IMG/VR virus record: IMGVR_UViG_2657245112_000032
Span: 1 to 4,416 of that record
DNA length: 4,416 bases
Origin: a virus
Lineage: Duplodnaviria; Heunggongvirae; Uroviricota; Caudoviricetes
Strand: one strand, 5' to 3'
Shown here: positions 1 to 4,416 of the stretch, piece by piece
Position numbering within the stretch: position 1 is the stretch's first letter
Layout: every line of letters starts with the position of its first letter
Notes under the pieces: generated by a model
The model's input: the letters and a program-made list of their open reading frames with translations, nothing else
What the model was told of the DNA's origin: nothing
The model's database searches: none
Translations under genes and position numbers: made by a program

Positions 1-1
1 G

Positions 2-511
2 TTTATTGGTGAAGGTGATGCATACATTCCACCTCATACAGGTCTGCCTGCAAACAGTACCGATATTGCCCCGCCAGATATTCCGGCTGGCTTCGTGGCC
101 GTTTTCAACAGTGATGAGGCATCGTGGAATCTCGTTGAAGACCATCGGGGAAAAACCGTCTATGACGTGGCTTCCGGCGACGCGTTATTTATTTCTGAAC
201 TTGGCCCATTACCGGAAAATGTCACCTGGTTATCCCCGGAAGGGGAGTTTCAGAAGTGGAACGGCACAGCCTGGGTGAAAGATGCAGAAGCAGAAAAACT
301 GTTCCGGATCCGGAAGGCGGAAGAAACAAAAAACAGCCTGATGCAGATGGCCAGTGAGCATATTGCGCCACTTCAGGATGCCGTAGATTTGGATATTGCG
401 ACGGAGGAAGAGGCATCGTTACTGACTGCATGGAAGACATATCGGGTATTGTTGAATCGTGTTGATACAACAGTAGCATCGGATGTTGAGTGGCCAGTCG
501 CCCCGCAATAA
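2..511 (+). CDS. tfa: Tail fibre assembly protein (lambda Tfa / E. coli prophage TfaE-TfaR family), 5'-truncated by the window edge
   Basis: The reading frame is open from position 2 and continues through the listed ORF 95-511 (its first codon at 95 is GTG inside the frame, not the true start). Translation [42 protein letters not shown]...[20 protein letters not shown] matches, from memory, the lambda Tfa family almost along its length. Stop TAA at 509-511. GC about 53%. The true start lies upstream of the window. Confidence 0.85.
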
Positions 512-518
512 AAGGATA

Positions 519-546
519 AAGCCATCGATAGAAATATTGATGGCTT
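519..546. terminator. Hairpin between convergent genes (tfa on plus, acetyltransferase on minus); likely intrinsic terminator, strongest in the minus direction
   Basis: Inverted repeat AAGCCATCGAT (519-529) / ATTGATGGCTT (536-546), 11 bp stem with one G-U pair and a 6-nt loop AGAAAT. On the minus-strand transcript it is followed by a U-rich tail (UAUCCUUUUAUU). It lies 8 nt downstream of the acetyltransferase stop (555-557) and 8 nt after the tfa stop. Confidence 0.5.
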
Positions 547-554
547 CATGTACT

Positions 555-1127
555 CTATTTATACAATACAACACCGCTCTTTTTTGTTATATATGTGCAG
601 TTCGATGGTATATCTTTATTTATAAAAGACATTGCACCTATTTTTACATTATCCCCAATTTTACGTGATAATCCAATGATGCAACAATTAGCTCCGATAT
701 CAACGTTATTACCAATTTTTACTCTTGAACCAGGCATGTCACCATCTACCTGTCCAATGGTAGTATTCTGTCGCAAAACCAGATTTTCACCAGCATCAAC
801 AGCAAAATGAACAACAATTCCAGTATGATGGGGAATTGTTAAACCTTTTCCAATATTTGCGCCCAATCCAATTTCGCAACCAAATCTGTTAATTATATTA
901 TTGTTTAACTTTCTGGCTGCTTTCTTATGTAATTTATTGCCATTAATATACATTTCATTAGCCAGTCTCCACCAGAAAAGGAAATTCCGATTGCGCTGCT
1001 TCTTCTCTCTTAATAGTCGCCAAACATCCATTTTTTCACGCCTGATGATTTCAGCCATCCAGTAGCTCAATAGAGCTTTTGAATTCCCGAAGATGACAAA
1101 GTGAATAGCTATTAAGTAACATAACAT
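555..1127 (-). CDS. Hexapeptide-repeat (left-handed beta-helix) acetyltransferase, CysE/WcaB/NodL-like
   Basis: Minus-strand ORF of 190 aa. The C-terminal half has consecutive hexapeptide repeats ([LIV]-G-x-x-x-x: IGLGAN, IGKGLT, IGQVDG, IGNNVD, IGANCC, IGDNVK, IGAMSF) typical of LbH acyltransferases. Start is uncertain: ATG at 1125-1127 (190 aa) or in-frame ATG at 1056-1058 (MAEIIRREK..., 167 aa); neither has a strong SD. GC about 32%, far below the flanking genes. Confidence 0.75.
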   Translation of the reverse strand: MLCYLIAIHFVIFGNSKALLSYWMAEIIRREKMDVWRLLREKKQRNRNFLFWWRLANEMYINGNKLHKKAARKLNNNIINRFGCEIGLGANIGKGLTIPHHTGIVVHFAVDAGENLVLRQNTTIGQVDGDMPGSRVKIGNNVDIGANCCIIGLSRKIGDNVKIGAMSFINKDIPSNCTYITKKSGVVLYK

Positions 1128-1595
1128 ATTGCAACTGCCTATATTTTTTGGTTTCTATGTTTATATATTGACATTATAATTAAAACAATAATCATCAGTG
1201 TGTTACTGCGTTCCTGCTAAACTAAATCAACGCACAATGTAAACACAAATGTTAATTTTAAACTGAGCGCTAAAGGGATGTCAATATTGTATTGATAATG
1301 AGTTGCAAGATTGCCAACACTTTCTATATTTTTGGATGTAATAATTTATATTTTATCTATTTAGTGTTTCTTTAGACTTATTAAGGATGTCATTATTAAT
1401 TTATGGCTTGCCATTTCTATACATATCTGTTAAAAATTTTGACTTGTTTGTTGAAAATAGATTTAATTGATTGGTTTATTTTTACATGACGCTCTTTAAT
1501 ATAGCTTCAGGTATATATAAGCACAATGCATTATTTCCAGAGGAAATTAACAAAATTGTTAGCTCTTATTTGTTGAGCTTATAGATATTAATTAA
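1128..1595. promoter_or_regulatory. Very AT-rich non-coding region (about 20-30% GC), probable promoter/regulatory region of the acetyltransferase cargo gene and possible H-NS-type silencing target
   Basis: No ORF of meaningful length on either strand and stop codons are dense; sampled 60-nt blocks give 17-32% GC. Candidate sigma70-like elements exist on both strands: minus strand TTGTTT-17-TATAAA at about 1188-1160, plus strand TTGACT (1439-1444)-17-TTTAAT (1462-1467). Such matches are expected by chance in AT-rich DNA. Confidence 0.4.
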
Positions 1596-1614
1596 GGCCC
1601 GATTCCGGGCCTTT
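1594..1614. terminator. GC-rich hairpin, candidate intrinsic terminator (possibly bidirectional)
   Basis: AAGGCCCG-ATTC-CGGGCCTT: 6 G-C pairs plus 2 A-T pairs, 4-nt loop. Followed by TTT on the plus strand and by a UUAAUUAAUAU tail in the minus direction. It sits immediately after the stop (1617-1619) of the minus-strand small ORF and at the boundary between the AT-rich region and the GC-normal operon region. Confidence 0.5.
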
Positions 1615-1616
1615 CC

Positions 1617-1853
1617 TCATTCCGGCTTTTCGGGAAACGTTACTGGAAGGATGGAGGTATCCGTGGATTCGACTTTCTGCGCATAGAGAATCCACTCGGT
1701 TAATTTTTGTTTACCCTGAACGGAAATAATGCCTAGCCGTAACTGTGAGTCCCAGAGCTGAGTTTTATCCCTGACGAGCTGTAGCAGGCTTTGCTTTTCT
1801 TTTTCCGCTTGTTGTCTTTGCATGACCGGTTGAGAAGTTACTTTGCATACCAT
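1617..1853 (-). CDS. Hypothetical small protein (78 aa), divergent from the operon; coding status uncertain
   Basis: Minus-strand ATG at 1853-1851 (MVCKVTSQPVMQRQQAEKEK...PEKPE), stop TGA at 1619-1617, hairpin directly downstream. AGGAGG (complement of 1856-1861) lies only 2 nt before this ATG, which is suboptimal. Several rare codons (AGA, AGG, CTA, CGG). The listed 165-aa ORF 1617-2114 extends antisense through the holin-like gene with an S/T/P-rich translation, so I truncate it to the first ATG after the SD. Confidence 0.4.
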   Translation of the reverse strand: MVCKVTSQPVMQRQQAEKEKQSLLQLVRDKTQLWDSQLRLGIISVQGKQKLTEWILYAQKVESTDTSILPVTFPEKPE

Positions 1854-1881
1854 TACCTCCTGACAACGTAGGAGGGAACTT

Positions 1882-2211
1882 GTGCTTGACACACAGGAAT
1901 TAGCTCCAGTTGCTATTGCGCTCCTGCTTTCAGTAATTGGTGGGATAGGCACGTTCCTGATGGATGTCCGAGACGGTCGCCAGTCTGGCAATTTGTTAGG
2001 ATTGGTTACGGAGATCTTTGTTGCAGTGACAGCTGGCGCGGTGGCGTACCTATTGGGGCAACACGAGGGCTGGGAGTTATCAATTACGTACTTAATGGTA
2101 ACGATAGCCAGCAATAACGGTCATGAGGTGATTTCAGGGATGAAACGAGTGAATATCGATAGCATTCTGAATGTTCTTACAAGTTTGGTGAAAAAGGGAG
2201 GCGGGAAATGA
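1882..2211 (+). CDS. Small three-transmembrane membrane protein, holin-like (class I holin topology)
   Basis: GTG start at 1882 preceded by AGGAGG (1870-1875) with a 6-nt spacer; an in-frame stop at 1861-1863 excludes a longer N-terminus. 109 aa with three hydrophobic segments (LAPVAIALLLSVIGGIGTFLM, LLGLVTEIFVAVTAGAVAYLLG, WELSITYLMVTIASN) and a charged C-terminal tail ending KKGGGK. Loose resemblance to lambda S-family holins by memory. Stop TGA at 2209-2211 overlaps the next start (ATGA). Confidence 0.7.
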   Translation: MLDTQELAPVAIALLLSVIGGIGTFLMDVRDGRQSGNLLGLVTEIFVAVTAGAVAYLLGQHEGWELSITYLMVTIASNNGHEVISGMKRVNIDSILNVLTSLVKKGGGK

Positions 2212-2651
2212 TTGGCTGGGGTGTATGCGTTCTTGCGTTAGCCTTAGCCGATCGCTATTTGCTAAAACGCAAGGACATCACGCACTTAGAACTTGGTGAT
2301 GTGGAAATTAAACCGGGTTTCATCCGGGTGCCGTTCAAATACCGGTCTAAATTCCCGTTTTTGCGCGGCGCAACGGTCAGATATTGGATCCGCGATGTTC
2401 AGAAGCCGACGACAGTGATTGAAGGCGAACAACGTTGTCTGACGTCGGCTGAACAGGGCGAAAACAGTGAATGGTTGTACATACCCACTGAATATATGGG
2501 TAAAGGAGAGCGACTGTGGCATTTCAACGTCATGGTTACGCATGGCGACTCGTTCATTAACCCGTTGTATCGGATTTTCCCTGTTACTCAGCAAATCCGC
2601 AGAAGTTACGTAATAAATCTCGCACAGGATGTGTCAGATGACGAAAAATAA
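2208..2651 (+). CDS. Hypothetical protein with N-terminal signal peptide or membrane anchor (147 aa); candidate holin partner (antiholin-like) or periplasmic component
   Basis: ATG at 2208 overlaps the upstream stop by 4 nt (ATGA). GGGAGG at 2196-2201 with a 6-nt spacer. N-terminus MIGWGVCVLALALA followed by DRYLLKRKD (hydrophobic h-region, possible AxA cleavage site). No recognisable lysozyme catalytic motif. Stop TAA at 2649-2651. Confidence 0.65.
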   Translation: MIGWGVCVLALALADRYLLKRKDITHLELGDVEIKPGFIRVPFKYRSKFPFLRGATVRYWIRDVQKPTTVIEGEQRCLTSAEQGENSEWLYIPTEYMGKGERLWHFNVMVTHGDSFINPLYRIFPVTQQIRRSYVINLAQDVSDDEK

Positions 2652-3240
2652 GTATGCAACGGTCGATTTTGACCAGGTTAATGAAAAGGGGCTGAAATCC
2701 CTTATCGCGGCGATCAATAAAACCGGGGTTACGGTAATTGAGGTTGACTCCAGCAACCGCGCAACAACGAAAGATGGCGTTAAAGTTAAAACCGCAAAGC
2801 TGGTTCTTAACGACGGACAAATTCTTGCCATACAGGTAAACGATACTGGCGATATATCGTCTGTGAAACTGAATGGAAAAGCTATTCCTAACGCTCAGTC
2901 GCCGGATATCAAGACGCTTGGTACCGTCATGGGACAGGCGGCTCGCAAAAACTCCGCAAAATTCCAGAAATCACTGATCGCCAAAGCGAAGCGTGTTGCC
3001 AATCCGGTAGACAAGAAACCGGCAGTTAAATCCAACTTTCAGCGCCTGCAAGAGGCAAAACAGCGGAATGCTCAGGTGGTTGCCGCTTATAAATCAGCTC
3101 AGAACTCGGTGTCTTTCAATCAACAGCAGATCACTGATTTGCGGGGGAAGCTGGATAAGGAGACAGGCCGACTCAATAACGAAAAGGCCCGAAATGGCGA
3201 ACTCAAACGCCGTCTTAAGCAACTGAAAGCAGGAAATTAA
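2638..3240 (+). CDS. Hypothetical protein (200 aa) with a C-terminal coiled-coil/basic region; paralog of the downstream gene
   Basis: Preferred start is ATG 2638 (AGGA at 2626-2629, 8-nt spacer), overlapping the upstream gene by 14 nt; the listed ORF start at 2629 is in the same frame. The C-terminal about 80 aa are K/R/Q/E-rich with heptad-like spacing (QRLQEAKQRNAQVVAAYKSAQ...LKRRLKQLKAGN). The central domain is homologous to a domain in the next gene. Stop TAA at 3238-3240. Confidence 0.7.
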   Translation: MTKNKYATVDFDQVNEKGLKSLIAAINKTGVTVIEVDSSNRATTKDGVKVKTAKLVLNDGQILAIQVNDTGDISSVKLNGKAIPNAQSPDIKTLGTVMGQAARKNSAKFQKSLIAKAKRVANPVDKKPAVKSNFQRLQEAKQRNAQVVAAYKSAQNSVSFNQQQITDLRGKLDKETGRLNNEKARNGELKRRLKQLKAGN

Positions 3241-3241
3241 C

Positions 3242-4243
3242 ATGGAACAGTTCAATATCAATAAAGGGGTGACGATCAAGCCTGGGCTTGACGTGCTTCC
3301 CCCGCCAGTGACTGATGATGAATATCGCGCATTAATGGCCGGTGAGGACCGCTATCTGATGACGGAATCCAACACCCTGGAGGAAATCGAGGCTACGTTC
3401 TTCTATGACACGCCGATCCACTGGTGTGCTACGGATTTACTGGAGGCGATTAGTTCTACTCGTTTGCAGTTACACCGGACCATGCAGGCATTTGTCCGGG
3501 CATTGAACCAGAAGCTGAATGGTACCGGAATCTCTGCGGGGAGTGATAAAACGGGCGATGTGGCCCAGAGCGGCGCGCGCGCGATCGGCGGCGCTGAAAT
3601 TGGTCGGGCACGTAACGTTAACGGGCTGCCGGTCCTGCCAGCCATTATTCCGCTCAGTGATGGTCAGACTATCAGCATTCTGTTTCATAGCCCGACAGCG
3701 GAAAACCGGATCACCAATAGCGATACGCTGGTTGCTTTCCAGTTCTTACTGAATAAAAAAGACGTTACTCACACCGTTGCTCCGATGAGTGGACGTGATA
3801 TGACGCTGGCGCAGGTCACCATGAAACTTGCCAACCTTGCAGAGAAAAACTCGGCAAAATTCCAGCGTGCGCAGAAGAAGAAAAAAGCCCTTGTTGATGA
3901 AATAACCCAACTACAGGCTGACAGTGACCAGAAAGAGGATGCCATGAGCGACCTCGCGGATCAGGTGGCAGCGGTAGAAGGGCAGAAGGCAGATCTGGAG
4001 CAGAAAATTAACGCTGTTGCATCGGAAGCGGATTCTCTTTATGAAGAGAATGAGCGTTTGCAGACGGAGATTGATCAGCTCAATCGCACTGGTGGGCGCG
4101 ATACCATTGCTCCTGCGGGGATGACTGGTGGGTACTCTCGCGCGCTGACGGATCGCCTTGCCAGTATCAAAAATCGTATGCATATGAACGGGGAAGTGAC
4201 GCTCAGTACTGAGAGATCCCCTCATAATTTCCCCAAAGCGTAA
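3242..4243 (+). CDS. Hypothetical protein (333 aa) with a domain paralogous to the upstream gene, followed by an acidic coiled-coil
   Basis: ATG at 3242 lies 1 nt after the upstream stop; AGGA at 3231-3234 with a 7-nt spacer. Contains a Gly/Ala-rich segment (GTGISAGSDKTGDVAQSGARAIGGAEIGRAR), a domain alignable with the upstream protein (LSDGQTISILF...DMTLAQVTMKLANLAEKNSAKFQ), and a long predicted coiled-coil (ALVDEITQLQADSDQKEDAMSDLADQVAAVEGQKADLEQKINAVASEADSLYEENERLQTEIDQL). Stop TAA at 4241-4243. Confidence 0.75.
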   Translation: MEQFNINKGVTIKPGLDVLPPPVTDDEYRALMAGEDRYLMTESNTLEEIEATFFYDTPIHWCATDLLEAISSTRLQLHRTMQAFVRALNQKLNGTGISAGSDKTGDVAQSGARAIGGAEIGRARNVNGLPVLPAIIPLSDGQTISILFHSPTAENRITNSDTLVAFQFLLNKKDVTHTVAPMSGRDMTLAQVTMKLANLAEKNSAKFQRAQKKKKALVDEITQLQADSDQKEDAMSDLADQVAAVEGQKADLEQKINAVASEADSLYEENERLQTEIDQLNRTGGRDTIAPAGMTGGYSRALTDRLASIKNRMHMNGEVTLSTERSPHNFPKA

Positions 4244-4416
4244 CCATGTGTGAATAAATTTTGAGCTAGTAGGGTTGCAGCCACGAGTAAGTCTTCCCTT
4301 GTTATTGTGTAGCCAGAATGCCGCAAAACTTCCATGCCTAAGCGAACTGTTGAGAGTACGTTTCGATTTCTGACTGTGTTAGCCTGGAAGTGCTTGTCCC
4401 AACCTTGTTTCTGAGC

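Follow-up and report, generated by a model that had tools for sequence, protein, structure and literature searches.

The stretch of DNA analyzed here (the window; 4,416 bases) is DNA of a P1-like phage-plasmid. Escherichia phage vB_EcoM-Ro157c2YLVW matches positions 1–4211 with 98.0% identity, and P1, P7, SJ46, and RCS47 match from 1821–1831 to 4208–4211 with 98.3–99.4% identity. Beginning at 1822 and continuing past the promoter and the palindrome under study into the start of lydA, the window agrees with P1 in every base, and the P1 annotation can therefore be transferred to the window (L001 coordinate minus 679 = window coordinate). The features of the locus and their coordinates are collected in table 1.

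Table 1. Features of the window around the lydA palindrome
Feature	Position	Strand	Remarks
Lambda-type tail-fiber assembly gene, 3' part	up to 511	+	
Hexapeptide acetyltransferase gene	555–1127	−	Not in P1
Spacer of 27–33% GC	~1128–1590		Sigma-70-like promoter matches on both strands
Truncated U' (tail-fiber assembly) remnant ORF, 78 codons	1617–1853	−	Caudo_TAP profile; P1 U' alignment
Deletion/recombination junction	1821/1822		P1 homology from 1822; cin, lydC, Sv', and the 5' half of U' missing
LPdar −22 box AAGTTACTT	1835–1843	+	9-bp inverted repeat, Lpa binding site; P1 annotation, L001 2514–2522
LPdar −10 hexamer TACCAT	1848–1853	+	P1 minus_10_signal, L001 2527–2532
Anti-Shine–Dalgarno arm CCTCCT (5' strand of hairpin)	1856–1861	+	Overlaps LPdar discriminator and putative start site
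Putative start of late lydA-lydB-hdf-darA transcript	1860–1862	+	Placed from the annotation
Spacer/loop GACAACGT	1862–1869	+	G1862-U1869 wobble possible; GACAA(C/T)G homologous to leaders of distant relatives
lydA Shine–Dalgarno AGGAGG (3' strand of hairpin)	1870–1875	+	6-nt spacer to GTG 1882
Second hairpin, CUUGUG (1879–1884)/CACAGG (1892–1897)	1879–1897	+	Encloses lydA GTG; predicted fold
lydA, holin, 109 aa, GTG start	1882–2211	+	Pfam PF16083; P1 annotation
lydB, antiholin	2208–2651	+	Overlaps lydA stop codon; P1 annotation
hdf	2629/2638–3240	+	
darA	from 3242	+	Interrupted by insertion sequence

The left part of the window includes DNA without a P1 counterpart (512–1616), which comprises the hexapeptide-repeat acetyltransferase gene and the AT-rich spacer. 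The Rfam family IS009 (RF02111) was matched at 276–474 on the plus strand with 192 bits (gathering score 117), wholly within the tail-fiber assembly gene. Directly 3' of the stop codon of the U' remnant lies a perfect 8-bp GC-rich hairpin (1594–1613; AAGGCCCG-ATTC-CGGGCCTT), which could serve to terminate transcription between the convergent genes; it was not called by the consensus terminator scan. With the genes lost at the junction (table 1), the tail-fiber segment can no longer invert, and the same junction layout is found in vB_EcoM-Ro157c2YLVW and approximately 10 other loci. At the right end, darA is interrupted by an IS4-family ISVsa5/IS10-like element, whose end occupies positions 4209–4416. 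P1 homology ends at 4208–4211, and the DarA frame continues into IS-derived codons as far as a stop at 4243.

An earlier reading made from the sequence alone (hereafter the sequence-only reading) had assigned the AGGAGG motif as the Shine–Dalgarno (SD) sequence of a holin-like gene starting with GTG at 1882. The P1 annotation and a match to Pfam PF16083 (holin superfamily III; 30.1 bits, cut-off 28.4) bear this out and identify the gene as lydA, the P1 holin gene. The predicted protein is 99–100% identical to LydA of P1, P7, and SJ46, and lydB, hdf, and darA come after lydA, the synteny expected for the LydA holin. In the Salmonella phage SJ46 (L004 1501), the lydA start is ATG rather than GTG, the leader and palindrome being otherwise identical.

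The palindrome CCTCCTGACAACGTAGGAGG occupies exactly 1856–1875, before lydA, with its AGGAGG arm followed by GAACTT and then by the GTG at 1882; the perfect CCTCCT-8 nt-AGGAGG inverted repeat had thus been read correctly in both sequence and coordinates. The remark that it could be extended with one mismatch also holds, the repeat arms reaching 9 nt with 89% complementarity (1853–1861/1870–1878). RNA folding gives a 7-bp stem of −10.7 kcal/mol, with a G1862-U1869 wobble pair next to the 6-nt loop. In read-through RNA of 200 nt, each SD base is predicted to pair with the CCUCCU arm with a probability of at least 0.99, and the leader folding therefore agrees with the suggestion that the SD would be buried in RNA containing both arms. 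The 32-nt piece folds with a z-score of −2.05, 8 of 200 shuffled sequences folding equally well. A search of Rfam at a permissive threshold gave no match near 1850–1900. A second predicted hairpin at 1879–1897 can form in late and read-through RNA alike. Its 3' arm consists of Thr-Gln-Glu codons that are conserved in all LydA relatives, so this hairpin may be incidental and does not lend itself to a covariation test.

The 5' arm of the palindrome lies at the late promoter LPdar, both signals of which are also carried by GenBank AJ000741. The 11 late promoters of P1 each contain a 9-bp inverted repeat as the binding site of the activator Lpa (PMC10695390). They need Lpa together with host SspA and are active late in infection only (PMC1891329, PMC10695390). 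Scanning the P1 genome for the motif gave LPS, LPdar, and promoters upstream of 23, prt, pacA, and lyz, which share one spacing between box and hexamer; in LPdar the −10 hexamer is 4 nt downstream of the −22 box. A generic −35/−10 scan gave no match at LPdar, which has no −35 element. We infer that transcription begins 7–9 nt past the −10 hexamer, in agreement with the center of the −22 box (1839 + 22 = 1861), which places +1 at either of the final two bases of CCTCCT or at the base right after the arm. A literature search for start-site transcriptomics of P1 yielded nothing usable. On this geometry, the late lydA mRNA should start at approximately 1860–1862 and lack the complete anti-SD arm, and would therefore be unable to form the hairpin.

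This placement bears directly on the version of the sequence-only reading in which the hairpin, as part of the main lydA mRNA, limits or postpones late translation of the holin. RNA with both arms is predicted to form a stable hairpin that covers the whole SD, and it is conceivable that promoters dependent on Lpa and SspA start atypically, the start site here being deduced from the annotation. However, inclusion of the whole 5' arm would require a start at or before 1856, at most 3 nt past the −10 hexamer, against both sigma-70 geometry and the “−22” naming of the box, and a scan of plus-strand positions 1437–1856 found no other sigma-70-like promoter. We consider a hairpin in the principal mRNA quite unlikely. 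A start mapped past 1861 had been named as the observation that would speak against the proposal; the placement at 1860–1862 comes close to this, although part of the range falls short of it.

Two other roles at the RNA level were rejected. The palindrome is not followed by a T-run on either strand, which excludes a terminator. An RNase III site or 5'-terminal stabilizer was dismissed on the geometric implausibility of a start at 1856, and the palindrome stem is too short for RNase III.

As a 6+6 bp inverted repeat centered at approximately +5 of LPdar, the palindrome might alternatively be a DNA operator over the start site, bound by a dimeric repressor of the dar operon. We found no common element downstream of the −10 hexamer among the P1 late promoters; only LPS and LPdar are partly alike past the hexamer (cttc-acaac), the other late promoters having no CCTCCT and nothing similar at this position. 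Moreover, the palindrome is the sole P1 copy at up to two mismatches, save one chance-level match, and is absent from the distant relatives described below. We know of no P1 regulator with such a site and regard an operator as very unlikely.

On the minus strand, the palindrome also provides an AGGAGG (1861–1856), and the sequence-only reading had suggested a shared divergent control element serving a small ORF. Two start codons follow this motif: ATG 1853, which opens 78 codons, and ATG 1848, which has an ideal 7-nt spacing and lies in another frame, opening 27 codons in the window and 17 in P1. The 78-codon ORF is annotated in one phage genome as “U' tail assembly chaperone” and comprises the C-terminal 68 residues of the tail-fiber chaperone U'. 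It aligns with P1 U' residues 100–177 at 79% identity and with positions 55–131 of the 131 positions of the Caudo_TAP profile. True homology begins only at residue 12, the first ~11 codons being antisense to the LPdar region, so the ORF is a chimera that arose through the deletion junction (1821/1822). The same ATG opens just 27 codons in P1, sequence past the junction varies by context, and the spacer between AGGAGG and ATG 1853 is 2 nt. The combination of a spacing of ~5–9 nt with an ORF conserved across relatives, as for a functional divergent gene, was not found, nor did a scan find a leftward promoter-like site near the palindrome. The divergent element fails on these grounds, and we judge a bidirectional ribosome-binding element highly improbable.

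Whether RNA containing both arms could arise depends on the sequence upstream of LPdar. The invariant block from promoter to lydA begins at approximately 1831 (GAGAAGTTACTT...), and at least six different upstream sequences adjoin it across P1-like elements. At 66 examined loci, the gene directly upstream is a co-oriented lydC homologue, with 30–100% identity to P1 LydC. In P1, lydC directly precedes the dar operon and has a putative early promoter, and both lydA and lydC are toxic when cloned (PMC9025707). A consensus scan between the P1 lydC stop and lydA found no terminator. RNA crossing the palindrome from upstream is plausible in P1, because of the co-oriented lydC, its putative early promoter and the terminator-free scan. 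With the stop codon of lydC 42 nt to the 5' side, ribosomes that finish translating lydC would leave the hairpin intact. In the window element, lydC, the main presumed source of read-through, has been deleted along with cin, and upstream RNA could therefore come only from the sigma-70-like sites of the AT-rich spacer or from the tail-fiber operon; no terminator-like site was found in a scan of the window. In one contig (L075, 1–60), unrelated DNA meets the exact 5' edge of CCTCCT (...GCAGGTCA joined to CCTCCTGAC...), so that the late promoter is gone and the entire palindrome is kept.

We computed the free energy required to unpair the lydA SD as a function of the RNA 5' end. Opening costs 9–10 kcal/mol when the 5' end is at or before 1856, 5.7–7.5 kcal/mol when it is at 1857, and 3.3–5 kcal/mol, the baseline, when it is at 1859 or later. 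For the region from −15 to +3 with 40 nt of coding sequence, the predicted cost rises from 8.9 kcal/mol in late RNA to 13.5 kcal/mol in read-through RNA. Even late RNA is not predicted to be fully open, as its SD and GUG can fold into a weaker alternative hairpin (−5.9 kcal/mol; G1868-U-A with U-G-C1885 and G1872-A-G with C-U-U1881), and for this reason the predicted contrast between read-through and late RNA is only ~4.6–6.5 kcal/mol.

Taken with the promoter geometry, these predictions lead us to favor, tentatively and somewhat short of calling it probable, a start-site-dependent gate on lydA of the type described for gene e of phage T4. The palindrome would combine a strong lydA SD with a complementary hexamer straddling the LPdar start. 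Lpa-dependent late transcripts, starting at approximately 1860–1862, would have no complete 5' arm and would be translated. RNA entering from upstream would carry both arms, fold into the 7-bp hairpin and bury the SD, so that little holin would be made from it. In P1 and most of its relatives, such RNA would derive from early transcription of lydC; in the window element it could come from the AT-rich insert or the tail-fiber operon. The translational gate on the holin suggested from the sequence is in this form possible for read-through transcripts only, since the main mRNA appears to begin without the complete anti-SD arm, and the hairpin would at most silence stray read-through transcripts. 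It is a fair possibility, held slightly more loosely than the gate itself, that in P1 and its many phage-plasmid relatives the firing of LPdar within the anti-SD strand guards against premature or lysogenic holin synthesis. We give the same cautious weight to a further part of this reading, namely that only Lpa-activated transcripts would have an open lydA site, with lydC or other read-through RNA remaining silent.

The principal alternative to a start-site-dependent gate is coincidence, that is, a strong SD that happens to lie near an unselected CCTCCT in the discriminator and initial transcribed region, with no regulatory role. An exact SD/anti-SD hexamer pair with so short a loop argues against chance, the pattern CCTCCT-N4–12-AGGAGG occurring once in the window and in none of 200 dinucleotide shuffles, as does the position of the putative late start, which splits the 5' arm just as in T4 gene e. 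LydA is furthermore a toxic holin whose gene usually follows a co-oriented non-late gene. Weighing in favor of coincidence, the z-score of the hairpin is only −1.4 to −2.05, and inverted repeats on SD sequences are not rare in P1: a perfect repeat of at least 6 bp places its 3' arm over the SD window in 7 of 92 genes, where ~3.0 would be expected from shuffling of the upstream 30 nt of P1 genes. The leader-only SD occlusion of lydA (12.3 kcal/mol) ranks fourth among the 92 genes (mean 5.4, standard deviation 3.3). It is exceeded by pmgC, ulx, and ban (L102/L103; 13–18 kcal/mol), which may be further structured or coupled initiation regions. The lydA hairpin is therefore unusual but not unique. 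Comparison with shuffled upstream sequences favors the gate in three P1-type contexts, where the native sequence occludes the SD more strongly and only 1, 4, and 7 of 100 shuffles reached its value; in the pyrimidine-rich context of the window itself, 16 of 100 did so, which weighs toward coincidence.

Conservation also bears on coincidence. We gathered 138 copies of the interval from the −10 hexamer to the start codon from IMG/VR, metagenomes, phages, and genomes, and 135 of these copies from the near-identical P1 clade are the same, leaving no covariation to test. The three variants are singletons, one of which adds a base pair (A1855C), one removes a base pair (C1856A), and the third lies outside the stem. 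More distant lydA lineages, with LydA 65–77% identical, occur in Salmonella salamae, Cronobacter/Klebsiella, and Pantoea. These keep the −22 box, the −10 hexamer (TAACAT, TACCAT, or TAAAAT, at unchanged spacing), the GACAAYG leader, and a G-rich SD. The CCTCCT arm is absent from all three, although promoter, leader, and SD are retained. Invariance within the P1 clade is uninformative in this respect, and conservation of the hairpin in related phages was not found. Nor do the distant lineages show an excess of SD occlusion, the native value being reached by 29–91 of 100 shuffled upstreams. Just upstream of the distant −22 box are pyrimidine tracts, for example TTACCTTTCC, to which the SD is paired in certain minimum-energy folds. 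The shuffle control gave no excess occlusion, so a relocation of the anti-SD was discarded as an explanation. On balance, we regard coincidence as a serious possibility, if a somewhat doubtful one.

Two further differences were seen among the distant lineages. The late-promoter box reads AAAGCACTTT in the distant P1-like elements (L084–L094, L098–L100). Their cin gene is on the same strand as lydA, 80–94 nt upstream, with no lydC; in P1, cin is divergent and lydC lies between cin and lydA.

LPdar, the SD, and lydA are already annotated in P1, and the locus is long known. The SD/anti-SD hairpin is not mentioned in the annotation of AF234172 or AJ000741, or in PMC9025707, and if functional it is possibly a fresh instance of a known control mechanism. 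A start-site-dependent gate, if real, would account for the ability of P1 to keep lydC, a holin paralogue transcribed early, before toxic lydA with no terminator between them, and would add a translational layer to the timing of P1 lysis, a subject still under study (PMC9025707). With such a gate, clones of lydA or the dar operon that include upstream sequence would yield far less LydA than the native late start. If the palindrome is a coincidence, nothing changes for the promoter, SD, and gene as annotated.

Among the closest known systems is the P1 LPdar-lydA region itself (AF234172, AJ000741), in which the sequence from 1822 is identical and the same promoter, SD, and gene are annotated; the window differs in having the U' remnant in place of lydC and cin. 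Anti-SD leader hairpins, such as those of RNA thermometers and riboswitch platforms, resemble the lydA palindrome in that CCUCCU pairs with the SD and blocks binding of the 30S subunit. In contrast, lydA has no sensor domain and no Rfam match, and its proposed switch is the choice of transcription start rather than ligand or temperature.

A parallel among holin genes is the sdi stem-loop of the lambda S holin gene, reportedly described by Blasi et al. in 1989. There too, a stem-loop in the RNA at the beginning of the holin gene is said to adjust the access of ribosomes and thereby the timing of lysis. The lambda structure, however, is said to reside in the normal late mRNA and to set the ratio of two starts, holin to antiholin, whereas lydA has one start, a separate antiholin gene (lydB), and a hairpin that its late mRNA is predicted not to contain.

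The T4 genes e, soc, 49, and I-TevI provide the precedent for control by start site. In their long early transcripts the SD or start codon is held in a helix, and late promoters located within the DNA encoding the 5' strand of the helix give rise to late mRNAs that do not contain this strand and are translated (PMC3014915). The two systems differ in several respects. The T4 promoters are of the gp55 type (TATAAATA), whereas that of lydA uses sigma-70 with Lpa and SspA. For T4 there are mapped 5' ends, structure probing, and a reported 100-fold effect, whereas the lydA start is deduced from annotation. The lydA stem is shorter (7 bp), with a predicted contrast of ~4.6–6.5 kcal/mol, and T4-type relatives conserve the structure whereas the distant relatives of P1 do not. 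Like T4 gene e, lydA is a lysis gene whose SD is predicted to lie in a helix in upstream-initiated RNA, and its −10 hexamer is next to the 5' strand, with the putative start at the 3' edge of that strand. If the gate on lydA is real, it would represent a second, independently evolved use of the gene e principle, acting on a holin in a temperate phage.
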